Notes under the pieces: model-generated | What the model saw: only the letters and a program-made list of their open reading frames with translations | Database searches by the model: none | What the model was told of the DNA's origin: nothing | Program-made: the position numbers and the translations under genes | In this document: one piece after another, positions 1,989 to 40,734 of the stretch | Numbering within the stretch: the stretch's first letter is position 1 | Layout: each line of letters opens with the position of its first letter | Source of the DNA: a virus | Length of the DNA: 64,000 bases | Virus record (IMG/VR): IMGVR_UViG_3300025889_000087 | Coordinates: 1-64,000 of that record | Direction: 5' to 3' (one strand)

Positions 1989-2013
1989 CAAAACACTTCA
2001 CTTCGTGAAATGG

Positions 2014-17629: not shown

Positions 17630-18841
17630 TCAGCAATTCCACCTTTTCAGTGCAGCACCCTTCGGGGTGAGTTTCCCGCCCTTGCTCGTCGGGCCCTTGA
17701 CGCCGCTCATGCGGGCGCAGAACGACTTTCGCCGCTTTGCTTTCTCCGAACCGGGTTTGAGGGTAGACGGCTTCTCGGTGACGGGGGGCTTCAGGTTCGC
17801 GCCCTCTTCACGCTTGAACTTCGCACGGCCCTTGGCGTTGAGGCCACCCTCGCGGCTATGCCGGTTGGGGTTATAGCCGTGAAATGGCTTGTCCGATTTT
17901 TTCCGCAATACATCGGCCCATGAAATACCATTGATGTAAGACGCGGTGAACATACCTGATGGATCGGAAAGGGGCTGCTGCGGCTCACAAGCGTCCCATT
18001 CATCCAAAATGCTTTCTAACGCGGAGACGAACTCCCTGTGAATTGCGATTGATTGGCGGGCTCGTTGTTGATTGGAGGGCAATTCTTCCATCGCCCTCAT
18101 GCGTGCTTCGGGGTCCTCATAGCCCATGATGATTTTTTGCGCTCTCCCATTCAGCCATTCTTCATCCTCGGGAATGGTGTTCGTTAGGTAATGTTCAATG
18201 TTCATCTGAATGTTTTCCCAAAGTTCCGCGCAACTATACGTTTCCCAAGGGTCGAACAGATCGCGTGTGTAATCATCCAATCCTCGGATTTTCGCGCAAA
18301 AGTCGTCCGCAGCCGCAAGGGCTTTCATCCGTGCTTCTTCGCAACAAGGGTCGCCTGTATCAATACCGAGCGTGGCATCTTCGACATCTTCCCCGACATC
18401 CTCCCCGACATTTTCCAAATCAAATCCTTGATCGCCCATTGTTTGGCGGGGAAAAATAGAGCGAGAAGGCATGTAGTCGAGTCCCTCTTTCAACAAATCT
18501 TCACGAATGTAAAACGCCTTCGCCAGTGTGAGGCACGAATCACAGTCGCACATTTTCACCATGGTTGGCTTCCCTCCGACTCCTTGCGGTTTTGAACGCT
18601 TGCGGCGTGTCGCCGCCTTCTTCTCCTGCGGACTCATGCTACGGGTGGTTTTAGGGGTGTCGGAGGACACCTTCTTTGATGGGCGGCACTTCGGGTAGCC
18701 CCGAGAGGAAGTGTCGGCCTCATCACGCCCGCAGGGCGGGTGCTTCCCGTCCTTGTCCTTCCGGCTTACGTCCACCCATTCTTCCTTGAACCAACGCCGA
18801 AGGTCCTTTTCAATCAAAAGTTCGGAGAATGGGGCGGTCAA
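17630..18841 (-). CDS. Multi-domain protein with basic marine-phage modules (LRRWFKEEWVDV..CGR; RRKSFCARM..ALKRWNC)
   Basis: Motifs recalled from marine phage proteins (DUF5872/DUF6321-like from memory, needs an HMM check). The TTG start overlaps the upstream stop (TTGA). Confidence 0.6.
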   Translation of the reverse strand: MTAPFSELLIEKDLRRWFKEEWVDVSRKDKDGKHPPCGRDEADTSSRGYPKCRPSKKVSSDTPKTTRSMSPQEKKAATRRKRSKPQGVGGKPTMVKMCDCDSCLTLAKAFYIREDLLKEGLDYMPSRSIFPRQTMGDQGFDLENVGEDVGEDVEDATLGIDTGDPCCEEARMKALAAADDFCAKIRGLDDYTRDLFDPWETYSCAELWENIQMNIEHYLTNTIPEDEEWLNGRAQKIIMGYEDPEARMRAMEELPSNQQRARQSIAIHREFVSALESILDEWDACEPQQPLSDPSGMFTASYINGISWADVLRKKSDKPFHGYNPNRHSREGGLNAKGRAKFKREEGANLKPPVTEKPSTLKPGSEKAKRRKSFCARMSGVKGPTSKGGKLTPKGAALKRWNC

Positions 18842-19035
18842 TCTTTGCCCCCCTTCCTTTTCCACCCGCCGCCTTTGCTCTTATACCACTTCGCGGCCCA
18901 ACCGTTTGCGTAGGCTGAGGGATAGACCTTGAACTTGGATCGGGCCTTCGATTTTGCCTGCGACCACAGGCCGGGGTTGGTCGGAGCATTTTCGCCCTTA
19001 ACAACGGACCAAGCGATTTCAAAGGCTTCGTTCAT
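18838..19035 (-). CDS. Small basic protein with AFxxAW leader (PTNPGLWSQAKSKARSKFKVYPSAYANGW module)
   Basis: MNEAFEIAWSVVKG leader followed by a basic module seen in marine phages. Confidence 0.7.
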   Translation of the reverse strand: MNEAFEIAWSVVKGENAPTNPGLWSQAKSKARSKFKVYPSAYANGWAAKWYKSKGGGWKRKGGKD

Positions 19036-19262
19036 TGGTATTCCTCCCTTATATCATCAGGAAAGCCATAGGGGTCGTGAATCACTCTTCCGGTCAGGTC
19101 CACAAGTGAAGACTCAACGTGTTCATTCGGGTCGAAGCAATCAGCGCAAATGATCGTATCGCCATCCAAGTCGATGAAATCATCGGTTTCCTTTCCGCAC
19201 ACTTCACAATAATACGGGTCGCTCTTGACGACAGACCAAGCGGCTTCAAAGGCTCCGCTCAT
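19032..19262 (-). CDS. Small Zn-finger protein with AFxxAW leader
   Basis: MSGAFEAAWSVVKS followed by CEVC...CADC. Confidence 0.7.
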   Translation of the reverse strand: MSGAFEAAWSVVKSDPYYCEVCGKETDDFIDLDGDTIICADCFDPNEHVESSLVDLTGRVIHDPYGFPDDIREEYQ

Positions 19263-20107
19263 GCAATTGCTACGATGGCTTCCCCGTCTTTATGCGTGTC
19301 GGCTCGTATGTCGTTCACCACAGACAGTGCAGCGTCAAGATTACCCACGCCGGTATTCGCGCCCCATGCTCGCAAATGATGGACAAGAACTTCAGTCGCA
19401 AGATTCGCCCCGCTTTTTTCAGCAAACGGGCAGCCACCAAGACCACCGATAGAGGAATCGAATTGACTGATGCCTGCAAAGATGCCTGCACGAACCAGTC
19501 GGAGAGGCTTTGCTACATCACCCCTGTGGTGAAGATGGAGGGCAGGTTCGACTCCTGCTTCTCGTGCGAGTTGGGCGAAGAGCACCACGTCTTTCTCAGT
19601 CCCAACGCCCACAGTGTCGGCAAACACAACCGTGTTCCCGAACATAGCAGCATCGCGCACCACTGATCGAATAGTGCCTTCGGAAAACACACCGGAATAC
19701 GGAGAGCCAAACGCCATAGAAACGTAGACACGCACGTTTTCCTTGGGGTAGCCGTTGAGGAACGTCCACAATTCATGGACTTTTTCGCTGCGCGTCTTCC
19801 CCATGTTTTTCATGCTGAAATGCTCACAGGGGCTCAAAACGATATTGATTTTCTCGACACCGACTTTGAGAGCCCGCTCAAAACCTCGGCGGTTCATCAC
19901 CAACGCTGAGCCACGACCGCTAAACACTTCTTCTGCGTCTGCCATTTGCGGCACCAATTTTGGGTGCGCAAATGACACTTCTTCGACGTGAACCAAACCC
20001 GCGTCGTAAAGGCAGCGAATCAATTCTCGCTTTTTTTCGCTCGGCACAAAGTCGGACAACGATTGCAGACCGTCACGAGGACCCACCTCGTAGACGGTCA
20101 CGCGCAC
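19259..20107 (-). CDS. Hydroxymethylglutaryl-CoA lyase-like (DRE-TIM metallolyase)
   Basis: YEVGPRDGLQ, ADTVGVG, HLHH, GLGGCPFA and GANLATE motifs. The start may be the GTG at 20101. Confidence 0.88.
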   Translation of the reverse strand: MRVTVYEVGPRDGLQSLSDFVPSEKKRELIRCLYDAGLVHVEEVSFAHPKLVPQMADAEEVFSGRGSALVMNRRGFERALKVGVEKINIVLSPCEHFSMKNMGKTRSEKVHELWTFLNGYPKENVRVYVSMAFGSPYSGVFSEGTIRSVVRDAAMFGNTVVFADTVGVGTEKDVVLFAQLAREAGVEPALHLHHRGDVAKPLRLVRAGIFAGISQFDSSIGGLGGCPFAEKSGANLATEVLVHHLRAWGANTGVGNLDAALSVVNDIRADTHKDGEAIVAIA

Positions 20108-26002: not shown

Positions 26003-27166
26003 TCATGCCTTCGTCCCCGCCCAATTTGGCCCAAACTGCAATTGCATGGCCCGCTCCATCTCGTCTTCGGTCAATTGCCGTTTGCCGTTTTTATCATGGT
26101 GTAGATAAGCGATGGTGACTGTCGGGTCCCAACAGGCACGGCAACCAAGGTCGCCCGTGCGCGGGTCAATGTTTGAATTGCAGTTCGACTTTGTTCCCCT
26201 CAGTGTTTTGGGACAAACGACCGAGTTCCTGCCCACCGCGTCGTATGTGGATGCTGAAATGCGCGGATGGCGCAGCAAATCAGCGATATTCGTTCCTGCG
26301 TATTCCGCATCGGGGCTGAGGGTGTCCATGGTTTCCCGTCCGGGCAACGAAATGCGCACGTTCACGTTTGATGGGAAAGCGTCGTCTTCCCACCCGCGAG
26401 CGTCGAGGAATTGCTCAAGGAAAGGCAATTGGCGAGTCGCCATCCAAAACCGCATATTCTCATGGGGCAGGGCTTGAGCCGCCAGATCGCTCACCTGCGA
26501 ATAGGAGCCGGGTCCCCGTGCGTCACCGGCAGTGAAAACGCGCACTGGAACACCGCTTGCCGATTCACGCCGCGAGATGTTTTGACTTGCGTCGTTATAG
26601 AGGACTTCTTGCATTCCCGACATGAAGGGATCAGAATCACCGAGGGCTTGGTCTATTCTCGCCCACAGGTTGTTTTGGACGTTGTTCATCGGATAACGGT
26701 TTTCACAAGCGTAGCAGTGTCCACACGCTGAGTCAGGGTCATTCCGCGTGGCGTAAATGCAGGCTTCGGGTGGGAAATCCATGATACCAATACCGGGCAT
26801 GGCCTCGGTGGTCGTGAAGCGCGAAAAGGCATCCCGTGCTCCCTGCTTCGTCGCGGGCAGGTTCAAGTCCCGAGCGACTTCAGACCACGGGGCAATTTCA
26901 CGACCTTCAAGTGGATAATCGACCAAACGCGGCTTCCCGTCGTCGTCACGCAACCAATCCCGCCATTTCCCTTGATTTGCGTTAAGCCAATCGAAGATTT
27001 CCTGATTACCACCACCGCCCTGTGCATATGTTCCCGACTGTTGCGGTGTCGGGTGGCTCCCGCCATACCGCTTATCCCACCAAAACATCTCATCCGGATC
27101 GCCCAATGCCTTCAGCAACACCCCGACGAGGGGCTCAAGGGCAATTGAACGGAGAATTATGCTCAC
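26003..27166 (-). CDS. Phage Gp88-like Cys-rich protein
   Basis: C..(DSA)CGHCYA, VRVFTAGD, FWMATR, PSNVNVRIS, VCP and CRACW. Confidence 0.65.
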   Translation of the reverse strand: MSIILRSIALEPLVGVLLKALGDPDEMFWWDKRYGGSHPTPQQSGTYAQGGGGNQEIFDWLNANQGKWRDWLRDDDGKPRLVDYPLEGREIAPWSEVARDLNLPATKQGARDAFSRFTTTEAMPGIGIMDFPPEACIYATRNDPDSACGHCYACENRYPMNNVQNNLWARIDQALGDSDPFMSGMQEVLYNDASQNISRRESASGVPVRVFTAGDARGPGSYSQVSDLAAQALPHENMRFWMATRQLPFLEQFLDARGWEDDAFPSNVNVRISLPGRETMDTLSPDAEYAGTNIADLLRHPRISASTYDAVGRNSVVCPKTLRGTKSNCNSNIDPRTGDLGCRACWDPTVTIAYLHHDKNGKRQLTEDEMERAMQLQFGPNWAGTKA

Positions 27167-29403: not shown

Positions 29404-30975
29404 ATGATGCCGAACGGTCAGCAGCCAATCTTCATTCTCCGCGAAGGAACCGACCGGAAGCACGGTCGTGTTGCACAGTCAAACAACATCGCCGCGGCCC
29501 GTGCCGTGGCTGACGCCGTGCGAACCACCCTTGGTCCCAAAGGCATGGACAAAATGTTGGTTGATGAGGGCGGCGATGTCATCATCACCAATGACGGCGC
29601 GACCATTCTCCGCGAAATGGACATCGACCACCCCGCGGCCAAGATGATCATTGAAGTCAGCAAAACGCAGGAGCAGGAATGTTTTGACGGGACAACCACC
29701 GCCGTCGTGCTTAGCGGTGAATTGCTGAAGCAGGCTGAGGAATTGCTCTCACAGGGCATTCACCCGACCACCATTTGCGACATTTTCCGCAAGGTCGGGA
29801 CCGAGGCCGTGAAGGCGTTATCCGGCTTCAGCAGCCATTCCGACGAAGCCATGTTGCTTAGCGTGGCTCGCACCGCCCTCACCGGAAAGTCGTCGGGCGA
29901 CCTGAAAGAGCACCTCGCCTCCATTTGCGTTGAAGCCGTTGAGCGACTCGACAAGCAGGACGGCTCAATCAACCTTGACGAAATTATGGTGGTGAAGGCC
30001 CTCGGTGGAGAAGCGACGGACTCATCCCTCATCCAATCCATCGTTCTCGACAAGGAACGCGCTCACCCGTCCATGCCGAAGACGCTGACGAACGCTCGTA
30101 GGGCCATCTGCGTCCTGTCCTGTCCGCTCACAGTGCAGACTACCACTATGGATGCAAACATTCAGATCACCGACCCGTCTCAAATTGCCGCGTTCTTGGA
30201 GCAGGAAGAGGCTTCTTTGCGCGAAATGGTGGATAAAATCGCCTCGTCAGGCGCGAAAGTCGTTGTGTGTCAGAAGGAAATTGACGACCTCGCCAAGCAC
30301 TACCTCGCCAAGCGACACATCATCGGCGTGGAGAAGGTCAAGAAGTCGGACATCGAAGCCCTGTCCCGCGCCACTGGCGCGGCCATTGTTGGCAACCTCG
30401 ATGACCTCGACACTGCCGCCCTCGGAACCTGCGACAACGTAATGGAGCAACGGGTGGGAGAATTGCCCATGATGTTCTTTGAGGGCTACGAAAAGAACCC
30501 ACCAGTCACACTCGTGCTTCGTGGCGGCACTGCGCCGTTCATTGAAGAAGTCGAGCGAGCCTTTGATGATGCCGTGGGCGTCGTCAAGGTGGCCCACGAA
30601 GACGAACAAGTCGTCCCCGGTGGTGGTTCCGTGTTCGCTGCCCTCGCTCAGTCCATCCTCACGAATGCAAACACCAAGGTGGGGCGCGAACGCATGGCTG
30701 CCGAGGCTTTCGCTGACGCGCTTCTCGTAATCCCACGCACTCTCGTGGAGAACGCGGGTCTTGATCCGGTGGACGAGATTATGACACTGCGTTCGGCCCA
30801 CGCTGAAGGGAAGGTGACGTGGGGTGTGGACGTGTTCGCGGGTGGCCTCATGGACATGGCCGAGAGCGACGTGTGGGAGCCACTGCGCGTTGTGTCGCAG
30901 GCCATCAAGTCAGCCGTCGAAACGTCAATCATGATTCTGCGCATTGACGACGTGATTTCGTCCAAGAAGGCGTGA
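29404..30975 (+). CDS. Group II chaperonin (thermosome subunit)
   Basis: [48 protein letters not shown] and ILRIDDVI. Confidence 0.97.
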
Positions 30976-30979
30976 TGAA

Positions 30980-31597
30980 TCACACAGGCCAACCAAGCGA
31001 CTGAAGGATTTCCCTTCTTCGATTGATGGCTCGTTCACGCAGGTGCTCAGGCAACCGCTCAACACCACGGGTCATCCACCGCATCCAGTCAATCTGTTCG
31101 TCAGGTATGGGAACGAGGAACTCGGGCGGAATGGGCGGGTTCATGTGAAATGTTCCCCATCCTCCGAGTTCACGAATGCCCTGATAATTCGGGAACCATG
31201 GTGCTTCCTCACGAATACCGAGGATTGTTGGCTTCCCCCTTTCTCGCGCCCTTGGCGTTCGCCATTCAAGCGGTTCGGTGATAGCAAGAAGTGGTCTATC
31301 TCCACGATCCATTACGGACCGTATGGCGTAGTTCTCGGCTACGGATTGGTTAGGACTCGACCAAACAATGCGCGTGTTCCTTATCTCCGGATCTGTCACC
31401 ATGGGGTTGAAATTGCGCAAAACGTCGTATTCGGGGGTGTCGCCAAACTCACCCATGCTCACAATCTGCGGCTGAATCCCCTCTTCCATGATGCGCTCAA
31501 GGGCCCGCGTGTTGGTCCCATGAAAAGAACGAATGCCGGGAGGCAATTCGCGCTCAGCCTTCACAATGTCCCACGCGAGGGAGAAGGCGGTCCTCAC
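30980..31597 (-). CDS. Leader-tagged ADP-ribosyltransferase-like protein
   Basis: GTG start (GTGA overlap) MRTAFSLAWDIVKA; FHGT...IMEEGI, VWSS....AENYA and IPPEFL. Confidence 0.65.
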   Translation of the reverse strand: MRTAFSLAWDIVKAERELPPGIRSFHGTNTRALERIMEEGIQPQIVSMGEFGDTPEYDVLRNFNPMVTDPEIRNTRIVWSSPNQSVAENYAIRSVMDRGDRPLLAITEPLEWRTPRARERGKPTILGIREEAPWFPNYQGIRELGGWGTFHMNPPIPPEFLVPIPDEQIDWMRWMTRGVERLPEHLRERAINRRREILQSLGWPV

Positions 31598-32457
31598 TGC
31601 CAACCCTCCACTTCGTCTTCCATCCGTTCTCGTAGCCCGCGCCATTTAATTTCGTGCATCCGTTGGCGATAATACGGGTCCTCTTGGTTGTGTGACCACA
31701 ATTGCTTCGCTTCCCACGATTGAACCGGGTCAGGTCGGTTGTCGATTTCCATTCCGTAATTTTGCTCCAATTCACGGGCCAAGTCGCGCATAGCCTCGCC
31801 TATGCCTCTTCGTTGGTATTCATGTTGCACCGCAAGATCCGAACCACTGTGGGCATAATCAGACAAGAATGGACGTAAGAGTTCAAACATTTCCGGCTCC
31901 CACCAGTCCTCAACTGCCGCAATTGCTTCTTTGGTGTCTTCGGGGACATCATCTCGTTCCAATACAAAGTCCCGTATGTATCGTCCGCGATCTTCCATAT
32001 CGTCAAAAGGATCACTGTGCCTATAACCGTAAATCCTCAAATGCCCAATGGGGTTTTCAGTCGCTTGTGCAAATGGCGAAGGGGCGACACCCTGCGTTTC
32101 ACGGGAAGGGAAGACTTTGACGGCAATTCCGTCGTCGAAACCGCCGCCATACGCAACCATAGGCCATTCTATGCCGTCGCGATCAACGTGCGTTGCGTGA
32201 AATAGGCGATCTCGCAAGCCGGGGTTATCGAGGGTATAGCCCCAACCACCATATCCTTGTGTGCCGTCTTCGTTGATTCCATGCCGTTCCATCAACACGG
32301 CATTATCCCTGTCCGCTTCGTCGGTGAACGCGCTCAATTCATCCAAAAGAGCGCGGCGTTCAGCCAACGCCTGCGTGTATTCGGGTCCAATTTCACGAAT
32401 TGAATTGAGATCCAGTGGGGCTTTCACCACCAACCACGCGGTGTCGAAAGCGTTCAT
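31594..32457 (-). CDS. Leader-tagged GNAT acetyltransferase-like protein
   Basis: MNAFDTAWLVVKAP; acetyl-CoA motif LAVQHEYQRRGIGEAM. Confidence 0.7.
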   Translation of the reverse strand: MNAFDTAWLVVKAPLDLNSIREIGPEYTQALAERRALLDELSAFTDEADRDNAVLMERHGINEDGTQGYGGWGYTLDNPGLRDRLFHATHVDRDGIEWPMVAYGGGFDDGIAVKVFPSRETQGVAPSPFAQATENPIGHLRIYGYRHSDPFDDMEDRGRYIRDFVLERDDVPEDTKEAIAAVEDWWEPEMFELLRPFLSDYAHSGSDLAVQHEYQRRGIGEAMRDLARELEQNYGMEIDNRPDPVQSWEAKQLWSHNQEDPYYRQRMHEIKWRGLRERMEDEVEGWQ

Positions 32458-32921
32458 TCTTCCATCACCCCAATGTCCGAAGTGCCGTGCTTTTCACGCA
32501 TCCTTTGAGCAAATCCTTCACCAAGATCCGTTTTCATTGACCTGACCGGATCAAAAAAGGTCTTCCCTTGAGATTGAGCCAAACGCACGATGAGATGCAA
32601 AAGGGCTTCCTGATACCCTTTTCCTCTATACCCACTCTTTGTCGATATTGTATAGGGATAGATGCCGTGGTCGAAATATGGCGCAATAATGTGGTGAGCC
32701 CTCCAATCGTCGTCTTCATCCATGATGTAGGCCGAACCGACGCCCGCTCCATCCTCACTCAAGCGGGCAAAAGCAGGCAATCGTTCCTGTGTTTCAGGGT
32801 CGATGAAGTCCGCTTCCAAGCGTTGATAGGGGTAGCCCCCGATTTCCTCGGTTGTTTCACGGATTGAGTCAAAGTCAAGCGGGGCCTTCATCAAAGACCA
32901 AGCGCGGTCGAAGGCGGTCAT
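32454..32921 (-). CDS. Leader-tagged GNAT acetyltransferase-like protein
   Basis: MTAFDRAWSLMKAP; ISTKSGYRGKGYQEALL. Confidence 0.65.
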   Translation of the reverse strand: MTAFDRAWSLMKAPLDFDSIRETTEEIGGYPYQRLEADFIDPETQERLPAFARLSEDGAGVGSAYIMDEDDDWRAHHIIAPYFDHGIYPYTISTKSGYRGKGYQEALLHLIVRLAQSQGKTFFDPVRSMKTDLGEGFAQRMREKHGTSDIGVMEE

Positions 32922-33817
32922 TGTTGATCCCCCATCCGCTCACGAAGACCGCGCCACCAAATCTCATGCAATCGGTCGCGGTAGTTCGGGTCGTTTTGGT
33001 TCGCCGCCCACATGCGCTGCGCGTCAAAGGACTGGTTGGGGTCGGGCCTCAAATCCACCTCTAAATCGTCGGGAAGGTAATTGTCGTTGAGTTCGCTTAG
33101 GAAATCGCGCATGGCCGTGGCTATGCCTTTGCGTTGATAAGAAGGTTTAACGTCGAGCATTGAACCTTCCGAGTATTCATAGAGCATGTCGCTCGCCGTC
33201 TCGTAATTGGCTTCTATTTCATCCAATTCGTGGTCCGTGTATTCTTCCGGGTTGTGTTCTGCGCGAATCCGAGCATCGAATGGGTTTTCAGACAAGCCCA
33301 TTCTTTCGGTGATGATGCCTTCAAGGATTGAGCCTCGGTCTCCATGACCTGCGGCAGTGACAGAAAGCGAACCTACCCGATTTGGTAAGTAGTCACCATA
33401 AAACCACCTGTCGCCAATCTGCGCACCATGCCCCCTACCAATTTCCTTTATGGGGCCTTGTCCTCCGCCGACATATGCTGCCACTTCGGCACCTCCGCCC
33501 CCCAGTCCGTAGGTAATCATTGGAAACTTGTTGCCCTTTTTGTCGTAGTGGTTTGCACGGTAAATCGAGCCGTGGTGTCGGGCCATCCCGATGATGTGCT
33601 CCAACGAAGAAAGTTCTTCGATGAGTTTGACCCAATCTTGATAGGGGATGTCTCCCATGATGCCGTGAGTCGTCGTCTTATAATCTTCCTCAAGCAAACT
33701 CCGAAGCATGTTCGCTCTTTCCGTCATAGCCCAAAAGTAGTCATCGCCCAGTCTTTGCACTGAGTCAAGATCCAGTGGGGCTTTCACCACCAACCATGCA
33801 CAATCAAACGGGCTCAT
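32918..33817 (-). CDS. Leader-tagged GNAT acetyltransferase-like protein (paralog of 31594-32457)
   Basis: True start MSPFDCAWLVVKAP; LDVKPSYQRKGIATAM; shared tail RPDP.QS..A...W..NQ.DP.YR.R.HEI.WRGLRERM. Confidence 0.7.
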   Translation of the reverse strand: MSPFDCAWLVVKAPLDLDSVQRLGDDYFWAMTERANMLRSLLEEDYKTTTHGIMGDIPYQDWVKLIEELSSLEHIIGMARHHGSIYRANHYDKKGNKFPMITYGLGGGGAEVAAYVGGGQGPIKEIGRGHGAQIGDRWFYGDYLPNRVGSLSVTAAGHGDRGSILEGIITERMGLSENPFDARIRAEHNPEEYTDHELDEIEANYETASDMLYEYSEGSMLDVKPSYQRKGIATAMRDFLSELNDNYLPDDLEVDLRPDPNQSFDAQRMWAANQNDPNYRDRLHEIWWRGLRERMGDQQ

Positions 33818-34238
33818 CGTCGTCCCCCGTTTTTCGTCGCATTTGCTCCTGCAATTCCTCACTAAACCACGGGTTTTCGTATTGCATCGCGTTGGGCCAG
33901 TCGATGTCTTCGGGCGGAATTGGCTCGTTCGACACAAACGACGCCATCTCAGGGTCAATGCCGAGTATTCGTGCGAGAATGGGGGAATGGTCTATACCCG
34001 GCCTCATGCGGGGGTCGCCTTCATCACGCCAAAACGGGAGGGTGATGATTTGTCGGCTTTGTGGCCGCGTCATACCGATCCACTTCGCCGCCCCGTCTTC
34101 GTCACGAGAAGCGTAGACTTCACCAAAATTGGACTTGATTCCTTGGGCTGCAATAGGACCAAGGTTTTCCATAGGCGTGGCGTGGTAATACCACGGTGCC
34201 TTGACGAGCGACCACGCTCGGTCGAAGGCATCCGCCAT
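33804..34238 (-). CDS. Leader-tagged ADP-ribosyltransferase-like protein
   Basis: MADAFDRAWSLVKAP; YYHAT..ENL..I...GI, VYAS and IPPEDI. Confidence 0.65.
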   Translation of the reverse strand: MADAFDRAWSLVKAPWYYHATPMENLGPIAAQGIKSNFGEVYASRDEDGAAKWIGMTRPQSRQIITLPFWRDEGDPRMRPGIDHSPILARILGIDPEMASFVSNEPIPPEDIDWPNAMQYENPWFSEELQEQMRRKTGDDDEPV

Positions 34239-34256
34239 GGTTCATGCACCCCTCGC

Positions 34257-35060
34257 TCATCGTTTGAACATTCCGCGACCAAACATGAAGTCCCATATTT
34301 CAGGGTCAATGTTGTGTTGCTGACCTGTGGGTATGGGCCTTCCTTCTTCGCCGCCTGCATAAAACAGGCCCCATTGTTGAGGTGGACCAGTATAGCCGTC
34401 AATGTTGGTTGCCCCTAAATCGGAAAGCACACGTCTCCGCAATTCGGGGTCACGCAATATCGTTCGCTGCATCATCATGGCCGCGCTTGGTGGTTTGAAC
34501 ACCTGAGAAGCGTATTCAGGTATAATCACCCAATCTTTGCCATGTTCTTGAAGACGCTGACCCCATTTTTCAACATCTCCTTCGCCAAAAAGGCCACGAT
34601 AGAGAGAAAAGGCCAAATTGTTCAATTCATCTTTCTCGCTCCCATCCCAATTTATGTGGCTCGTTCCGTCATTTCCCATTTGCATAGGAGGGACATAGAC
34701 CCGCTCGGGGTTCACTTCAGGCAACGTGAACGAATGGACATCACGGGTATTCCCTCCATGCTGTTCTTTGTCCCATCCCGCGTATTGCTGCGCCGTCAGC
34801 AATTGCGGCGAAAAGAAGCGACCGCTTGGATCGCCCGCACGGTATAGGGTCTGCCCAGTGAACGGGAAAAATGGTGCTAAATTGCTCGGCTCATTGACTT
34901 GAGCCATGATGAGTTCGGGCATGATGTCTTCCAAAAAATCATGGTCTTCGCCCGCCCAATCCCACGGCTGCCTGCGTCGGTGTGCGTCAAAAATCCTGAA
35001 GGCCTCGTCCTCGGTGATGGGGGCTTTGATGATCGCCCATGCGGCGTCGAAGGGCGTCAC
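34257..35060 (-). CDS. Leader-tagged protein, possible ART-like fold
   Basis: GTG start MTPFDAAWAIIKAP; TLYRAG...FFSP....AQQYA. Confidence 0.55.
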   Translation of the reverse strand: MTPFDAAWAIIKAPITEDEAFRIFDAHRRRQPWDWAGEDHDFLEDIMPELIMAQVNEPSNLAPFFPFTGQTLYRAGDPSGRFFSPQLLTAQQYAGWDKEQHGGNTRDVHSFTLPEVNPERVYVPPMQMGNDGTSHINWDGSEKDELNNLAFSLYRGLFGEGDVEKWGQRLQEHGKDWVIIPEYASQVFKPPSAAMMMQRTILRDPELRRRVLSDLGATNIDGYTGPPQQWGLFYAGGEEGRPIPTGQQHNIDPEIWDFMFGRGMFKR

Positions 35061-35815
35061 CACCAATCATCCTCCGTGATTCCCACATCGTTAGCGGCCT
35101 GTCGCTGCCATTCCTCCAAATTGTCCCATTCGCCGTGCATTTCAATGGGTGACGCATCTTCATGGGAAAAAGATTCCACGAAATCATCGTATTCGGACGT
35201 TCTATACACATCATCGGTTGCCTGATGTTGAGGCGGATTGCGGTTAAACCGCTCAAGCGATTCATTGTTCCGGTAGGCAATCAAACGCTGCAAAGCCTCC
35301 CGTGCGTGTTTTTCCCGTTGGTCGGGTGTGAAAGCGGCTCCCGAAGTCACTTCAGGGTCAAGCCGCGCCTTTCCTTCATTGATGAACTCCTGAAGCAATT
35401 CAATAACGCGGTCGTGCGGAAGCCTCACGCTCCCCACATCGTTCCAATCTTCCAACATAACACCAAAGCCGGGACTGAAAGGGTCTTCACGCAACATTCC
35501 CGGTTCGTCTTCTCCATATTCGCTTGGGTCAATGACGCTGATGCTCGGAATTGTCCTCCGCATTGGCGGTGCTTCAATACCGCGTGAGTCAATCAATTGT
35601 CTGTTGGCGGGGTTCATGTATCGCGCAGCCGAACCGAAGAGCGCGTATTGGAGGGCGGCGTCGAGATTGTTTGAAAAATACCGTGGGTCGTCCCTCGCGT
35701 CCCCGCCGCTGAACAACATTTCGTCGTCTTCAATTGTCCTAACGAGGCCCCTGTCGCCCGCATAAACGTCAATGGGGGCTTTGATGATCGCCCAAGCAGC
35801 GTCGAAGGCGGTCAT
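35057..35815 (-). CDS. Leader-tagged protein, possible ART-like fold (paralog trio)
   Basis: MTAFDAAWAIIKAP; LFSGG...DDPRYFS....ALQYALFGS. Confidence 0.55.
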   Translation of the reverse strand: MTAFDAAWAIIKAPIDVYAGDRGLVRTIEDDEMLFSGGDARDDPRYFSNNLDAALQYALFGSAARYMNPANRQLIDSRGIEAPPMRRTIPSISVIDPSEYGEDEPGMLREDPFSPGFGVMLEDWNDVGSVRLPHDRVIELLQEFINEGKARLDPEVTSGAAFTPDQREKHAREALQRLIAYRNNESLERFNRNPPQHQATDDVYRTSEYDDFVESFSHEDASPIEMHGEWDNLEEWQRQAANDVGITEDDWW

Positions 35816-36471
35816 CGCAATACCCCAAGCCGTTGGTGCCCTGCCCCCTGTTCAAGCATTTCAAGCAAAAGCCGGTAAAGGTGGGCCTGTTGGTCTATGA
35901 ACCCGCCGAAATCATATCCTCCCGTAGCATTCCGGTCAAACTGTTTTGCGCCCTCAACCAATTCCCCCGTATATGGATTTGAGAATGTAGGTTGCGTTCC
36001 CCACGCCAACCTCCCTTGCCCGTCCGCCAACTCGCGCAACAAGATTTGCAGCATTTCATTGTCGGGTAATGTGCGGTAGCGGACCCGTGGGGGTTGGCTC
36101 AATGATGGGGCATAAAAACCACTATTCCCCCTCCGAACGGTCTTGTCCGCATCAATACCAATCCAATTCATGTTCTCGGGTTCTCCCGTTAAAAACTCAG
36201 GATCGTGAATGAGGCGGACTGTTTCGTCCGTGGGGGTAGCAATCCGCAATTCAGGTATTCCTGTCCGGTATTTCCTCTCCCCTCCACTTCCTGAGCCAAA
36301 TACGGCGTAGGCAAGAGCCGTTGATTTGTCGGGTGTCCAATACCGCGTATCTTGTCCCCCGCGTTTATTGCCCTGATAAAGCGTGTCGCCTTCTTCGCCG
36401 GACAAAACACGAAAACCCGGCATGACGTAGGGCATTTTTACGATGTCCCAAGCGGCGTCGAAGGCGGTCAT
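35812..36471 (-). CDS. Leader-tagged protein, possible ART-like fold (paralog trio)
   Basis: MTAFDAAWDIVKMP; LYQG...DTRYWT....ALAYAVFGS. Confidence 0.55.
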   Translation of the reverse strand: MTAFDAAWDIVKMPYVMPGFRVLSGEEGDTLYQGNKRGGQDTRYWTPDKSTALAYAVFGSGSGGERKYRTGIPELRIATPTDETVRLIHDPEFLTGEPENMNWIGIDADKTVRRGNSGFYAPSLSQPPRVRYRTLPDNEMLQILLRELADGQGRLAWGTQPTFSNPYTGELVEGAKQFDRNATGGYDFGGFIDQQAHLYRLLLEMLEQGAGHQRLGVLR

Positions 36472-36472
36472 A

Positions 36473-36685
36473 TCATACCTCACCTACCCAATCCCAATTT
36501 GCATCAAGGAATCGCTGTTCTATTCTATCCTTTGCCCCATTCTCTCGTTGAACAATAGCCACTTGATGTGTTCCCACCCCATCGGGTATCATATCATACC
36601 CCACCAATTGAACCTGTTCGCCTGTGTGTTTGTTCCTCAGAACTCCCTGCTTGAGCAAAGCCCAAGCGGTGTCGAAGGCGGTCAT
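36473..36685 (-). CDS. Leader-tagged small beta-rich protein
   Basis: MTAFDTAWALLKQG; 70 aa. Confidence 0.6.
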   Translation of the reverse strand: MTAFDTAWALLKQGVLRNKHTGEQVQLVGYDMIPDGVGTHQVAIVQRENGAKDRIEQRFLDANWDWVGEV

Positions 36686-37176
36686 AGAAGCCCCCTCCTT
36701 CGCAGTTCCTCCATAATCGCAGGGTGTTCCATGCCCTCAACGAGCATGGCTCCGTATTCGTTTTCCGGTCCCCCCAAGTGAACAAACTCGTCCTGTATTG
36801 CTTCGTGGCCTTCTTCGTGCATGATTGACTCGATGATGCGCCGAATCATTTCATCTTCAGAAAGTCTTCGCCCTCCGAGTTCTTCGTTTCTGTTGCCCGG
36901 ATCGTCCCAAGAATGGATAGGATGTGCGAGATTTACGGCTGCGACGTATTTATCGTCCGTGGCGTAAAGATTAGAAAAAGGCCCACGTTCACGTTCTTCC
37001 GGCTTTCTGCTCCGTTCTCTCCATCGAATGTTTGTCTTAGGCCATTTCATCGGAACCCAATTTTGCATCCTGCTATGAAAAGCGGCTTCTCGACTTCTCT
37101 CGTTCCCGTTTTCCAAATCCGCTCCAAAATAGAAGTCGGCCTTCAAAATCGCCCAAGCGGCGTCGAAGGCGGTCAC
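36682..37176 (-). CDS. Leader-tagged zincin metallopeptidase-like protein
   Basis: GTG start MTAFDAAWAILKAD; IMHEEGHEA...NEYGA. Confidence 0.6.
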   Translation of the reverse strand: MTAFDAAWAILKADFYFGADLENGNERSREAAFHSRMQNWVPMKWPKTNIRWRERSRKPEERERGPFSNLYATDDKYVAAVNLAHPIHSWDDPGNRNEELGGRRLSEDEMIRRIIESIMHEEGHEAIQDEFVHLGGPENEYGAMLVEGMEHPAIMEELRRRGLL

Positions 37177-37802
37177 AACGGCTCCCCCCATTCTTCCCGC
37201 AGTTCCTCGGCTAAACGCTTGGGGCGATTGACGGGCTCAATAGGCACTGGTGGGCGGTCTTCCTCAATGACCGGCCAATAGGTGCCTTCGGGATAGGTGG
37301 TGTGGATGTAGCCGGTGTTAAACGCATTCGTTGGCCGAACCCCTGTTTGTCCCTCCCAAAAGTCCATGCCCTCAAGACTTTGCAGGTTGCTTGGAGCAAT
37401 CCTTCTCATCAGCCCGAGGGCCCCCCGATCGGCGAGAATGGCCGCCAAATCGTAAATGGCGGTCATGTAGCCGCGGTTCCGATAAGGATTCCACGTCGAA
37501 GTGCCACCCGACGAGAACACCTGCGACGGCTCGTGTAGTGGGGCGGCGGGACGGTTGAAGGTTGCTTGAGAGCGGTCAATTTCATTTTGTCCATACGGTC
37601 CGGGGCCTCGGATGGCGACATGCACGTTTTCCCCTATGACCTGAGCCGTCATGGGGTGCTCTTCGCCCGTCACCGGATCCAAGAAGCGGGCCACCGGCTC
37701 GGGTGGCGTTTTCGTTGAACTCCACTTGACGTTTTGCGGATTTACAGAATCCACGATGAGGGGGGCCTTCATGACCGACCAAGCGGTGTCAAATGCCGTC
37801 AT
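37173..37802 (-). CDS. Leader-tagged GNAT acetyltransferase-like protein
   Basis: MTAFDTAWSVMKAP; TWNPYRNRGYMTAIY...QSLEGMDFW. Confidence 0.6.
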   Translation of the reverse strand: MTAFDTAWSVMKAPLIVDSVNPQNVKWSSTKTPPEPVARFLDPVTGEEHPMTAQVIGENVHVAIRGPGPYGQNEIDRSQATFNRPAAPLHEPSQVFSSGGTSTWNPYRNRGYMTAIYDLAAILADRGALGLMRRIAPSNLQSLEGMDFWEGQTGVRPTNAFNTGYIHTTYPEGTYWPVIEEDRPPVPIEPVNRPKRLAEELREEWGEPL

Positions 37803-38422
37803 CGCAACACCCCAAGCCGCTCCAATTCAAAATAGGTGCGGTCCGGCATATCCCTACCCTCCCTGTATCGGATTTCCTCTCCGTCGGAGAATACCGGAAT
37901 GACTTCTTCAAGATGCTGAGGCGCAATCGGACGAACCGACATCGTAGCGCGGTAGCCAATTCCGGGTTGAAAATCGGGGTCTTGCCACACAGGACCCGGC
38001 GGGGTAATACGCGATCCAATAATGGACATGGGGCGTCCATGCCACGCATCGGAAAAGAATTGGGCCATCAGTAGCGGGTGAAGGTCGTTGTTGAAAGGGC
38101 CTTTCTGTTGCCATTGTCTTAGACTGACGGGTTGCCTTTGGTGACGAAACGTATAGACGGCTTCGTCATGGGGCCATTCGGGATATTTGAACGCCTCGCC
38201 CCTTTCTGCCTGTTGTATCGCTTCCATCACGGCTTTGCTATCAGGGGCAGGGCGACCGTAATGCGGCAAAACCGGACGTGGGACAATTCCTTCTTCAAGA
38301 ACCTGATCGACAAAATCAGAAGGAATGGCGCGGTAGGCACGGAATTGGTCTTTTCCGCCCCATGAGGGCGTGACTTCGACCGCCTTCACGACCGACCAAG
38401 CGGTGTCGAAAGCGTTCACCAT
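37799..38422 (-). CDS. Leader-tagged protein, possible ART-like fold
   Basis: M(V)NAFDTAWSVVKA; AYRA...VLEEGI.P, VYTF and IAPQHL. Confidence 0.55.
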   Translation of the reverse strand: MVNAFDTAWSVVKAVEVTPSWGGKDQFRAYRAIPSDFVDQVLEEGIVPRPVLPHYGRPAPDSKAVMEAIQQAERGEAFKYPEWPHDEAVYTFRHQRQPVSLRQWQQKGPFNNDLHPLLMAQFFSDAWHGRPMSIIGSRITPPGPVWQDPDFQPGIGYRATMSVRPIAPQHLEEVIPVFSDGEEIRYREGRDMPDRTYFELERLGVLR

Positions 38423-39090
38423 ACGTCCAACCCCCACTGCCGATTGCGATAGGTGCGCGAAGTGCCTGCGTTGTCTTGGCCCCCAGTGTCCAAACGCCCC
38501 GGTTCCTCCAAACCTTCAAGTCGTTCTGCCGCCCCCATAAGATGTTCCCGTATTTGCTGCTCCGTCGCGTTTTGCGCCGATGTGTCACCCACATAGACCC
38601 CTTCGTCGGTCATCCGCCGTTGGATTCCGTGTTCACCGAGAAGACGGATCATGTCGTAGATGTGGTTGCTCAATTCCGCTTTTGGCATAGGCGTGTAATT
38701 GATGGGGGCCTGATCGACGGCAAAATCATAATCGGGGTTCAGCGGCTCGCTCATCACTGCTCCCCTTTCCCCGGTCCATGTTTCAGGGTCTCCAAATAGA
38801 ACATTTTGCGGAGAACGGTCAAAGTCCAAAGGGCCGGGGTCCTCAGCGACCATGACTTGCGGAATGGTTTGACGCATGGTCTGCATCCCCGTGCCCGAAC
38901 CGAATAGAGCATAGCGCAGTGCCTCATCGAAATTGCGCGTCCAATAGCGCGGATCGTCGCCCTGATGCCCACCGGAATAGAGAGGGCCCTTGATGGACTC
39001 ACGGTCGTCAAGGAACGGTTCGTAGTCGTCGTCTATGACGAACCACGGGGCCTTGACGACCGACCAAGCGTCGTCAAACGCTCGGCTCAT
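38416..39090 (-). CDS. Leader-tagged protein, possible ART-like fold (paralog trio)
   Basis: MSRAFDDAWSVVKAP; LYSGG...DDPRYWT....ALRYALFGS. Confidence 0.55.
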   Translation of the reverse strand: MSRAFDDAWSVVKAPWFVIDDDYEPFLDDRESIKGPLYSGGHQGDDPRYWTRNFDEALRYALFGSGTGMQTMRQTIPQVMVAEDPGPLDFDRSPQNVLFGDPETWTGERGAVMSEPLNPDYDFAVDQAPINYTPMPKAELSNHIYDMIRLLGEHGIQRRMTDEGVYVGDTSAQNATEQQIREHLMGAAERLEGLEEPGRLDTGGQDNAGTSRTYRNRQWGLDVW

Positions 39091-39129
39091 GTGATTCCGC
39101 ACGAACCGCGGAGAGAAAAACGTGGCGGT
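39088..39129 (-). promoter_or_regulatory. Duplicated upstream element, copy 1 (ACCGccACGTTTTTcT...TTCGTGCGGAATCACATG)
   Basis: Near-identical to 39597-39638 and ends at the start codon. Confidence 0.6.
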
Positions 39130-39599
39130 CAGAACTCGGCTCCTTCCAAGTCTTCCAAAACACGATGCGGGCTTCCCTTGGGGGCGGCTTGCTTACGGGC
39201 CCTTGGGCGAGGCATACGAGATACGGAACCGTAGCCCCCGTAATCCTCGGAAGATGGCTTCTCCCTCTTTGACTTAAAACCGTGGTCGAAGAATGGACCC
39301 TCATAATCTCCCCTTGCGCTCAAATCAAGACCACTTGTCAAACCTGTGTGGGGGCCATGTTCCGAATCGCCCAATCCGAGTCTTTGGCGGGCGAAATCTC
39401 GCTGATAGTCTGCGGCAAGCAGCGCGTAAATGAGAGCATTCGGATCGACTGTCCCCAAATTGTGCGCACCCGAACCCATGTTGTTGGCGAGGTTCATACG
39501 TTCCTCGGTATCAGGGTGAACCTGTGAGTTAATGCGGTTGAATGCCTGATGGTTGGGGTTCGCCTTAACGATAGACCAAGCCGACTCAAACGCTCCCAT
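39129..39599 (-). CDS. Leader-tagged hypothetical protein
   Basis: MGAFESAWSIVKAN; first full gene of the array. Confidence 0.6.
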   Translation of the reverse strand: MGAFESAWSIVKANPNHQAFNRINSQVHPDTEERMNLANNMGSGAHNLGTVDPNALIYALLAADYQRDFARQRLGLGDSEHGPHTGLTSGLDLSARGDYEGPFFDHGFKSKREKPSSEDYGGYGSVSRMPRPRARKQAAPKGSPHRVLEDLEGAEF

Positions 39600-39735
39600 G
39601 TGATTCCGCACGAATCACAGGGATAAAAACGTCGCGGTGAGTCAGGGCCCTCACCAACCATCCCCCCATATTGCCTTCCCATCGACGGTGACTTGCTTCG
39701 TCCCATACCGAGAATGCGGCATCGAAGGCATCCAC
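39586..39735 (-). pseudogene. Degenerate leader remnant (GTG DAFDAAFSVW...)
   Basis: Leader-like codons preceded by GGGGTATTGCG, as at the 35812 junction; no K|A and no cargo domain. Confidence 0.4.
39597..39638 (-). promoter_or_regulatory. Duplicated upstream element, copy 2, with TTTTTAT box
   Basis: ACCGCGACGTTTTTATCCCTGTGATTCGTGCGGAATCACATG; the T-rich box is ~25-30 nt upstream of the ATG. Confidence 0.6.
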
Positions 39736-39881
39736 GCAATACCCCATGAGCCGCTCCTTGAAAAAAAAATCCGGCGGGAATGGGACTCCGGATCGGCCAA
39801 AAGACGGGACTCCTAACACCCCTGTGAGTCCTAACAAAAAAAGTCTCAGATTTTTTCCGTGTAGCGTCTGTGGTTAGGGAG

Positions 39882-39981
39882 GCCGCGCAGCAAAAAAAAA
39901 AAATGTGCCCGCAGGCAAGCCTGCGGGCCATTTTGTTTTTTTTCGCTACACTGCGCGGCAGGCCCGACCGCAGGTCGGGCC
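39882..39981. repeat. Two adjacent inverted repeats (hairpins) with A/T tracts
   Basis: GCCGCGCAG-C-A12-TGT-GCCCGCAGGC aa GCCTGCGGGC-CA-T-rich...CTGCGCGGC, followed by GGCCCGACC gca GGTCGGGCC. Confidence 0.8.
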
Positions 39982-40734
39982 GCACGCTCGGCGTGGCGGG
40001 CTCGGCGGCATAGCCGCATAGCGGCGCAGTGCTGCGCTTTTGCTGCGTTGGCTCGGCCACCCGTGGTGCTTTGTGGTGGGTGGCGGTGGCCCGCCCATCC
40101 CCGCAATAGGCTCGCCGTCCCCCGTTTAGCACGCCTCACCCGCCCTCGCTCGGCCCGATCCTGCTCTCGACGGGCCATCCATGGGCTCAAATCGCTGCAC
40201 GGTGGGCCTTTTGCGGCTATGTGGCCCGCTCGCCCACCCTGTGGCTCGTGCTCCCTCACCAGTGGCCCGCCCTCAGCCGAGCCTGCCCCGACGCCCGGTC
40301 AGGCCGCTTTTGCTGCTACACGGTGCCTCCATGGGCGCAAAACGGGCATATGCCGGTATGTGGCCCGCCCCACCCCCTTCTGCGCAGATTTCCGCGCTCC
40401 GAGCCGTCGCCGCGCCACACCGCAGGGGTGCCGGACGGGCAGACTTTCGGTCACGGCCACGCAGAATGGGTGCGGTGAGCCCGTCGAGGCCATGTGCGGG
40501 GCATGAGTCCATGCTCATGGCCCATGCCCATGCCATGCTCATGGGGTCGGCTTTCTTCACTTTCTTCACTTTATTCATTCATATTTTTCTCTCCCCTTCC
40601 CCTCTATACCCCTTTTCAGGGGTGTATCTCATAGGTGATGGATGATGAAAGTGATGAAAGATTGAGGTTCAGTGGGCCGTTCACGGTAGCCCACCCAAAA
40701 ACCGCTACGCTGCACCACGAAACGCTGCGCTTGA

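Follow-up and report, generated by a model that had tools for sequence, protein, structure and literature searches.

A tag shared by the genes of one array

The DNA described here, called the window, is a stretch of 64,000 nucleotides that corresponds to positions 1-64,000 of the IMG/VR virus record IMGVR_UViG_3300025889_000087, whose full length is 96,109 bp. At 30980-39599 it contains an array of 14 consecutive minus-strand genes, g01 to g14 (Table 1), and all 14 encode proteins that carry near the N-terminus the same short peptide, here called the tag, with the pattern [AP]-F-[DES]-x-A-W-x-h-h-K, in which h is a hydrophobic or small residue. The distance from an ATG or GTG to the tag is 1-3 codons, none of them a stop, and GTG starts are required for g01, g06 and g10. 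Nine of the 13 junctions between array genes are 4-nt ATGA/GTGA overlaps; at the other four, the genes are 1, 18 and 38 nt apart or, in one case, overlap by 14 nt. The array lies on the minus strand, as do the genes of the portal, the large terminase (TerL), the protease and the major capsid protein (MCP). Past the Lys the similarity ends except in two paralogue groups, one made by g02 and g04, with g03 and g11 weakly related to them, and the other by g07, g08 and g13; the mean pairwise nucleotide identity of the array genes is 0.70 over the 30 leader bases and 0.34 over the next 30. The first-pass annotation of this DNA had listed 14 leader strings, and every one is found in the sequence as written. 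Its description of the array also holds, namely that corrected start codons place the leader at the beginning of each gene, that most genes are joined by ATGA/GTGA overlaps on the strand of the head genes, and that similarity stops at or soon after the Lys apart from paralogues.

Three further copies of the tag are found in the window outside the array, two of them N-terminal, in the small proteins x19a and x19b, and one internal, at residue 29 of the 450-amino-acid (aa) protein x13. With a weight matrix built solely from the copies in other viruses, the 17 window copies score 23-36 bits and the next best site of the genome 14 bits, and therefore chance is excluded for the window tags. The rest of the 96,109-bp genome, replication arm included, has no tag except one degenerate N-terminal copy, ..RAFGIGWSVVKG.., at position 77711 of the minus strand in the right arm, on a 92-aa stop-to-stop frame. 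Another small open reading frame (ORF), at 39586-39747 on the minus strand with a Shine-Dalgarno-like AAGGAG upstream, overlaps the start of g14 and begins with MGYCVDAFDAAFSVWDE.., a decayed tag that has lost the W as well as the h-h-K; this ORF may be what remains of a 15th cassette.

The full consensus of the tag is M-x-[AP]-F-[DE]-x-A-W-x-h-h-K, with a hydrophobic face F-x3-W-x2-h, which by analogy has the spacing of known helix-in-groove motifs. The tag is predicted to be helical in both AlphaFold2 (AF2) models (g01 and g07) and the helical hydrophobic moment of the 12-mer is 0.4-0.6, in agreement with the amphipathic helix proposed earlier for the leader. Between genomes with a GC content of 37-58%, residues F, W and K stay the same, with synonymous changes, and the constancy of residues under varying codons indicates that the peptide is under selection. 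In the tags of the window, third codon positions are alike at 0.60, above the codon-usage prediction, and Ala-4 is GCT in 9 of the 14 copies and in 16% of cases elsewhere; this excess points to a degree of concerted evolution in the repeat, and such evolution could aid cassette exchange. The residues that follow the tag are constrained too, on cargoes that have no relation to one another. After correction for the way the loci were found, the residue after the Lys is Ala in 48 cases (12 expected), Met in 52 (7), Leu in 1 (12), Arg in 1 (14.5) and Pro in 0 (13), so that Leu/Ile/Val, Lys/Arg and Pro are nearly excluded at this position, while Pro is enriched at P2'.

To follow the tag beyond this genome, a degenerate DNA pattern for A-F-D-x-A-W-x-h-h-K-A was scanned through IMG/VR, and the loci were rescanned at the protein level. 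The scan gives 73 loci with 261 tag copies, 256 of which lie in complete ORFs; the tag is placed 2-3 codons after the start in 240 of these and two codons after it (MTAFDxAW...) in 208. All tagged genes of a locus are on one strand, in every locus, and the genes that the window has in common with the tagged loci are those of the thermosome, MCP, and the HMGL-like, GP88-like and DUF6321 proteins. In five near-complete relatives (93-111 kb) the count is 6-14 copies per genome, in 1-2 clusters, and 0 for the reversed-pattern control. An unbiased census within the arrays finds many variant tags, such as ...AWDIAK and ...AFALLK, which keep F and Lys even where the search pattern made no such demand. 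The 256 tagged proteins form 121 blastp clusters, with 78 singletons, and their cargo, the part that follows the tag, includes at least ADP-ribosyltransferase (ART), GNAT-like, HExxH, Zn-ribbon, GH-E nuclease and GP88-like kinds. Pfam models matched by the 139 cluster representatives are GP88, DUF7249, HTH_38, DZR_2, DUF7573, DUF5872 and GH-E, with one member each.

Applied to 596 Gb of prokaryote genomes, the same DNA pattern has 8 matches, roughly as many as chance would give, and seven of them are either internal or in the wrong context. Four N-terminal copies are found in the eighth case, a single-cell contig of Poseidoniales 106 kb long, which links the host to Poseidoniales. The tag is virus-specific, being absent from cellular genomes beyond chance, and is a hallmark of thermosome-encoding magroviruses; it is confirmed as a lineage-wide, virus-only N-terminal tag on hypervariable, mostly enzymatic proteins. 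The first-pass annotation had raised the possibility that the leader is equally common on replication or cellular genes, and this is not the case, as the replication arm has none and prokaryotes are at the chance level. Its prediction of clustering in the late arm stands in part: clusters with variable cargo are present in every relative, some of them inside the head-tail operon, but the array of the window is a separate operon. It had also remarked that it knew of no such system in archaeal viruses, and a literature search found the motif strings in no paper and no paper on the tag or a shared leader, which the magrovirus papers PMC5434244 and PMC11706807 do not mention.

The left arm of the window (1 to ~40 kb) has 53-58% GC and nearly all its genes on the minus strand, among them one for a 1183-aa protein. 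The MCP gene is cut by the record start and has no continuation at the far record end, so the 96-kb record is not a closed genome. The MCP is homologous to the MCPs of the haloarchaeal viruses HVTV-1, HCTV-1 and HCTV-5. Group A magroviruses, which are viruses of Marine Group II (Poseidoniales) archaea, encode a thermosome (PMC5434244). The window virus is a thermosome-encoding, group A-like magrovirus because of its ~100-kb genome, its thermosome, its HVTV-1-like MCP and the Poseidoniales link. In an annotated phage collection there is no close relative, neither for the array DNA nor for TerL.

Table 1. Features of the window that are discussed in the text; a slash within a peptide marks the junction after the Lys.
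Feature	Position	Strand	Description
MCP, N-terminal 203 residues	2-610	-	Gene cut by record start
Protease-scaffold	624-1991	-	S78 prohead serine protease with scaffold-like C-terminal part; Pfam Peptidase_S78 E 3.8e-9
Portal	7367-9163	-	
TerL	10397-11839	-	T7-like large terminase
x13	11836-13188	-	450 aa, just upstream of TerL; internal tag AFDAAWELLK/Y at 13075-13104
x19b and p411	17630-19035	-	x19b (18838-19035, tagged, 65 aa) and p411 (17630-18865); one DUF5872 domain, split by a frameshift
x19a	19032-19262	-	Tagged 76-aa Zn-ribbon protein
p387	26003-27166	-	GP88-like core protein; N-terminal peptide ends ..VGVLLK/ALGD
Thermosome	29404-30975	+	Group II chaperonin
g01	30980-31597	-	GTG start, MRTAFSLAWDIVKA...; Tpt1/KptA-like ART fold in the model, FHGT motif
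g02	31594-32457	-	GNAT-like cargo, motif A YQRRGIGEAM; paralogue of g04; Acetyltransf_7 E 0.004, below cut-off
g03	32454-32921	-	GNAT-like cargo, YRGKGYQEAL; Acetyltransf_1 E 0.009, below cut-off; cluster 1
g04	32918-33817	-	PFDCAW variant of the tag; GNAT-like cargo; paralogue of g02 (E 9e-37)
g05	33804-34238	-	YYHAT...GI motif right after the tag; probable ART cargo
g06	34257-35060	-	GTG start, PFDAAW variant; singleton; no cargo family assigned
g07	35057-35815	-	Paralogue of g08 and g13; cargo family widespread in relatives
g08	35812-36471	-	Paralogue of g07 and g13
g09	36473-36685	-	70 aa; no cargo family assigned
g10	36682-37176	-	GTG start; HExxH in MHEEGHEA
g11	37173-37802	-	GNAT-like cargo (YRNRGYMTAIYD)
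g12	37799-38422	-	AYRAIP...EGIVP replaces YHGT...EGL
g13	38416-39090	-	Paralogue of g07 and g08; the upstream element of g14 is repeated before it
g14	39129-39599	-	First gene of the array; L055 orthologue 41% identical; no cargo family assigned
Upstream elements	39091-39640	-	Two TATA-like boxes (ACGTTTTT[AC]TC), then TTCGTGCGGAATCAC, before the ATGs of g14 and g13

Cargo and turnover of the array genes

The largest tagged family is the one of g01, in which K-[MA]-P-(x)-Y-H-G-T is found directly after the tag. The profile of this family matches Tpt1/KptA among PDB sequences with an E of 3.5e-4, and DarT more weakly, and the match to Tpt1 falls on the H-G-T motif. The AF2 model of g01 has a mean predicted local distance difference test score (pLDDT) of 69, and Foldseek gives a probability of 0.99 for an ART match. 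Superposed by VIA on the ART domain of Tpt1/KptA, the model reaches Z 9.0-9.8 with a root-mean-square deviation of 2.1-3.4 Å over 82-94 residues, and the identity over this domain is 20-27%; the next matches, at Z 5-6.5, are Arr, the Rhs ART toxin TreX, PARP13, pertussis S1, diphtheria toxin and DarT. In the 24 members of the family, H26 and T28 are invariant and G27 is kept in at least 90%, and these residues correspond to the H-G-[ST] NAD-binding motif of strand 1. On the basis of the model, g01 is firmly predicted to have a Tpt1/KptA-like ART fold, which has the H-G-T motif in common with Tpt1/KptA, whereas the N-terminal winged-helix domain of those enzymes is lacking in g01.

Two other proteins, g05 and g12, align by hhalign with the g01 family along H-[GA]-T...G-[IL], with probabilities that are inflated by the common tag. 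The cargo of g05 is probably an ART, judged by its motif, and that of g12, which matches the orthologue of g01 in the nearest relative, L055, with an E of 9e-6 and has an Arg in place of the motif His, is possibly one. The paralogues g07, g08 and g13 are weakly indicated as ART-like. The AF2 model of g07 (pLDDT 74) has no Foldseek match at an E of 0.001 or below, while its VIA superpositions on diphtheria toxin and Tpt1 reach Z 3.5-4.0, and its Atlas features are close to the PARP and Arr clusters (0.89-0.90); the hhalign comparison of the three proteins with ARTs is weak outside the tag.

Proteins g02, g03, g04 and g11 look like GNAT-like acetyltransferases from their motif A and from weak profile matches. 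A regular expression for motif A (R/Q-x-x-G-x-G/A) is matched by 19 of the 24 proteins of their cluster, cluster 1, and 18 of the 19 matches are of the RRRGYATAxYD type, those of g02, g04 and g11 among them and that of g03 not; the YRGKGYQ of g03 was read by eye, outside the regular-expression matches. Compared with PDB, 12 of the 15 matches of their profile are GNATs, all weak (E 0.045-1.5). For g10, the putative zincin call comes from the HExxH motif alone, which is kept in 6 of 6 members of its subfamily. In two relatives (L001:12058-13392 and L034:4556-5605) one tagged protein fuses a GNAT-like module (..RGKG..L.EMI..) to a HExxH module of the g10 family. The count of up to seven ARTs, four GNAT-like proteins, one zincin and two proteins of no known kind that was proposed in the first-pass annotation is a fair upper bound, and of the ARTs one is firm, two probable and three weak; its claim that the cargoes are unrelated agrees with the finding that they do not form a single homologous family.

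Copies of the upstream element are located at 39091-39125 (g13) and 39600-39640 (g14). The g14 copy has a perfect dyad, GATTC-GTGCG-GAATC (GATTC-N5-GAATC), between the TATA-like box and the ATG, and the combination of TATA-like box and dyad is found nowhere else in the genome beyond g14 and g13. These elements are candidate promoters or operators of the array. In L055 the thermosome is 90% identical to that of the window and the orthologous array genes are 41-76% identical; eight genes of the window have no L055 orthologue, and gene content and order differ. This low identity and the eight genes without orthologue, set against the 90% of the thermosome, show that the array turns over quickly.

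The h-h-K junction in head and core proteins

The h-h-K end is the strongest clue to the function of the tag. The junction h-h-K/small, in which two hydrophobic or small residues and a Lys are followed by a small residue, Met or an acidic residue, is also conserved in head proteins, at sites that a prohead protease could be expected to cut. The MCP of the window has ..TDLLK/ADSP.. 38 residues in, and 35 MCPs have ELLK/[AS]D 34 residues in, with K34 invariant, a site that aligns with ..MSK/AD.. of the HVTV-1 MCP. The protease-scaffold protein has four h-x-K/small junctions that are conserved in 40 homologues (41-100% identity), and these include an N-terminal h-L-K/[AGS] and an I-L-K/[EQM]-D exactly where the S78 domain ends. 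This S78 protease is a candidate for the enzyme that removes the tag.

In the GP88-like core proteins, of which p387 is the member in the window, ..LLK/AxGD stands ahead of the conserved body whatever peptide precedes it, and homologues in four relatives (L001, L032, L028 and L005) bear the canonical tag instead. The peptide can be the tag or another sequence while the junction is constant, which indicates that the pro-peptide is exchangeable and the junction fixed.

At a G-rich run, ..GGCGGCGGGTGGAAAAGGAAGGGGGGCAAAG.., x19b overlaps p411 in another frame, with profile positions 1-39 of DUF5872 in x19b and 54-110 in p411. The frameshift is due either to the assembly or to programmed frameshifting, and if read through it gives a tagged protein of ~470 aa that ends in a DUF6321 domain. 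This C-terminal domain of p411 (17630-17870) is basic and is preceded by ..SWADVLRK/KSDKPFHGY. In the relatives (L012, L026, L031, L038, L046, L056, L059, L060, L064 and L065), DUF6321 (KSKPFHGYNPN.H...GGLNAKGRAKAKRE..) is strongly basic, 65-88% conserved and always placed after h-h-K/AKKK. Two relatives have the canonical tag ahead of this junction, others have Zn-ribbon modules; in some relatives the whole is a tagged protein of ~100 aa. From its composition and placement, DUF6321 is a candidate DNA-binding head-internal protein that would be released by cleavage.

Protein x13 has, besides its internal tag, a second LLLK/A at residues 8-12, and its relatives have the tag N-terminally; an Atlas search with x13 gave no usable match. 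The head-tail operon of relatives has one variable slot, ~2.8 kb past the MCP start, for optional tagged genes of several kinds. The slot lies, in L083-L162, between a head gene of ~99 aa and a gene of ~520-610 aa (MPQVFSPGE..) and is empty in most viruses; where it is filled, the gene is a tagged one of 69, 121, 139-142, 233 or 408 aa or one of 475 aa whose tag is truncated (MSDFFEVLKA).

Proposed capsid loading and its alternatives

The best explanation of the tag is a removable capsid-loading label that would end in a prohead-protease site, with a function like that of the capsid-targeting sequence (CTS) of phage T4 and no relation to it, and a probability of about 0.5 is given to this reading. 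The capsid targeting proposed in the first-pass annotation is thereby supported in part, and indirectly, by the junctions and the placement of the tagged genes. The hydrophobic face of the tag would dock the protein on a prohead component, which could be the scaffold core or the shell interior, and docking would enclose the fast-changing set of enzymes in the head. The S78 prohead protease would then cut at h-h-K and remove the tag inside the head, as it would the MCP propeptide, and the cargo so released would pass into the next host together with the DNA. The delivered set would comprise Tpt1-like ARTs, GNAT-like acetyltransferases, the HExxH protein, Zn-ribbon proteins and the basic DUF6321 protein. 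The wider proposal, that magroviruses, which rank high in abundance among the archaeal viruses of the ocean, load a hypervariable host-modifying arsenal of Tpt1-like ARTs, acetyltransferases, metalloprotease-like proteins and nucleases by a protease-removable helix and inject it into Poseidoniales, with the tag maybe acting also as a lock on their activity in the producing cell, is tentative and held at slightly less than even odds.

As described in the T4 account of PMC7411985, the internal proteins IPI-III and the ART Alt have an N-terminal CTS of 10-20 residues, by which they are brought into the prohead core and which the prohead protease then takes off. The CTS (Mullaney & Black 1996, as cited in PMC7411985) is, like the tag, a short N-terminal pro-peptide on unrelated proteins, one of which is an ART. 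It ends at a prohead protease motif that is also present in capsid and scaffold proteins, and the tag likewise appears to end in an MCP/scaffold-type junction; in both systems the genes vary between related viruses. The two peptides have no sequence likeness, the protease is gp21 in T4 and a candidate S78 enzyme of HK97 type here, and the cut is after Glu in T4 and would be after Lys here. The T4 scheme has a bacterial host and four tagged proteins, whereas this one has an archaeal host and 14-18 tagged genes, and the CTS is known from experiment while the magrovirus tag is known from sequence alone. Common descent with the T4 system, which has a gp21-type protease and an L/I-x-E cut, is ruled out by the Peptidase_S78 match and the Lys junction.

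The ejection proteins of the giant phages SPN3US and phiKZ have N-terminal propeptides that are cut at AXE by the prohead protease (PMC7411985). There, as would be the case here, many head-internal proteins are cut at a short motif that the MCP has too, and a role in targeting to the prohead is proposed for the propeptides; unlike the tag, these propeptides have ~110-130 residues and are not one common peptide, and many of the cargo proteins are paralogous. Other systems offer partial likenesses. Encapsulin cargo-loading peptides are terminal peptides of ~10 residues on unrelated enzymes, which bind the inner face of a shell with HK97 fold, but they are usually C-terminal and uncleaved, and their compartment is cellular, without delivery to another cell. 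In MuF-toxin fusions and in the Dar proteins of P1, which have an N-terminal packaging signal, variable enzyme or toxin modules are borne in the phage head through a constant N-terminal part, which is a whole domain or a signal of ~30 residues and not a 12-residue helix repeated on a gene array.

Several observations weigh against capsid loading. The array of the window is an operon of its own, ~20 kb from the head genes, where it borders on a divergent intergenic region and the convergent thermosome gene closes it off, a position that would equally suit early host-takeover genes. The tagged cargo is acidic like the rest of the proteome, with a median isoelectric point (pI) of 4.9, and in the ART family the catalytic His is 4-5 residues past the Lys, with almost no linker. 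The C-terminal tail of the scaffold, ..GLDAWRALEDLAQ.., scores below 8 bits with the tag matrix, which gives no support to a mimicry of this tail by the tag. The h-h-K motif is short and frequent by chance, so that its weight lies in positional conservation alone. The cultured relative HVTV-1 has no tag, its best pattern match being at the C-terminal end of gp30, so published virion proteomics are not transferable. A variant of the proposal in which the cargo is basic and DNA-binding, as in T4, was considered and is ruled out by the median pI, with x19b, x13 and the DUF6321 domain as exceptions.

The main rival view is that the tag is an intracellular docking peptide, with which unpackaged host-takeover effectors, made after infection, would plug a helix into one hub of the host or of the virus, so that different modifying enzymes would gather at one target. 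A promoter-proximal operon that stands apart, adjoining the divergent intergenic region, and has an operator-like dyad unlike the right-arm promoters would be natural for such effectors, whose acidic cargo does not bind DNA and whose invariant F, W and K suit a helix-in-groove motif; ARTs and acetyltransferases of T4 that are made early and not packaged (ModA, ModB) provide a precedent. Docking leaves unexplained why the tag ends in a junction that is conserved in the MCP and the protease-scaffold, why tagged genes are inserted in the head-tail operon, and why tag and junction are found as a pro-peptide on the GP88-like and DUF6321 core proteins, and it is considered unlikely, though with an appreciable chance. 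That the tag is nothing other than a pro-peptide lock, which keeps toxic enzymes inactive or times them for viral processing in the cytoplasm with no loading into capsids, would agree with h-h-K junctions that point to proteolysis and with a tag that abuts the first ART strand (K-MP-YHGT) and could block the NAD pocket. As HK97-type S78 prohead proteases act inside proheads, and as a lock has no need for an invariant F/W helix on unrelated folds that include Zn-ribbons and a basic domain, this explanation is improbable.

Still less credit is given to an explanation at the level of DNA or RNA, by which a functionless peptide would be encoded by a repeat of 30-36 bp that is kept by recombination or gene conversion or by coupled translation. 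The alikeness of third codon positions beyond codon usage, with the GCT bias of Ala-4, would fit it, as would the ATGA/GTGA overlaps at most array junctions and the differences from L055 in gene content and order. Recombination at a repeat explains the turnover of cassettes, but not the amino-acid pattern, in which F, W and K stay while codons change with GC content and the residues past the Lys are constrained too, nor the internal copies away from gene starts in x13 and L060. A terminal helix with the hydrophobic moment of the tag resembles membrane-targeting helices of the MinD type, which are terminal, and could send the enzymes to the host membrane; lipid-binding helices tolerate substitutions, whereas F, A, W and K of the tag are nearly invariant, a conserved acidic residue is present and a basic flank is not, and the motif is unused in host genomes, all of which makes this very doubtful. 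Very low odds are likewise given to recruitment of the tagged proteins as clients of the virus-encoded chaperonin. The thermosome gene does adjoin the array here and in several relatives, and a chaperonin is present in 4 of 4 relatives that are at least 90% complete, but in two complete relatives at least 40 kb separate chaperonin and arrays, and group II chaperonins are not known to use a sequence tag on their clients.

The uncultured Poseidoniales rank with the most plentiful archaea of the surface ocean, and the takeover of the host by magroviruses is almost uncharted. If the tag is a code for loading and cleavage, it marks by sequence the whole delivered protein set, with hundreds of unrelated metagenome families, and points to the specificity of the maturation protease. 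It would be the first code for addressing capsid cargo in an archaeal virus, readable in the sequence as tag plus h-h-K cut, and would imply that archaeal viruses came to a T4-style injection of swappable effectors by way of an unrelated peptide and an unrelated protease. The tag could also become a tool for loading proteins into HK97-type shells. If it docks early effectors on a host hub instead, it would identify this hub as a central target of the infection.

Some minor features of the left arm were also recorded. The helix of the thermosome that has the catalytic Asp (residues ~391-401, encoded at 30559-30591 on the plus strand) is identical at 9 of 11 positions to the tag of g13, AFDDAWSVVKA. 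Derivation of the tag from this helix, or mimicry of it, is rejected, as its score is only 14 bits and the motif is universal among chaperonins; at this place cellular thermosomes read ERA[LIV]xDA[IVL]xVV, so the likeness is probably a coincidence. The HMGL-like gene (19259-20107, minus strand), which encodes an untagged TIM barrel of the pyruvate carboxyltransferase type, is found within or beside the tag arrays in 26 of the 73 loci. The divergent intergenic region at ~39850-40650 is rich in GC (66-70%) and has several GGGCGGGCCAC-like repeats and long T/A runs, and, lying between the two arms, it is a candidate for a replication origin or a control region.

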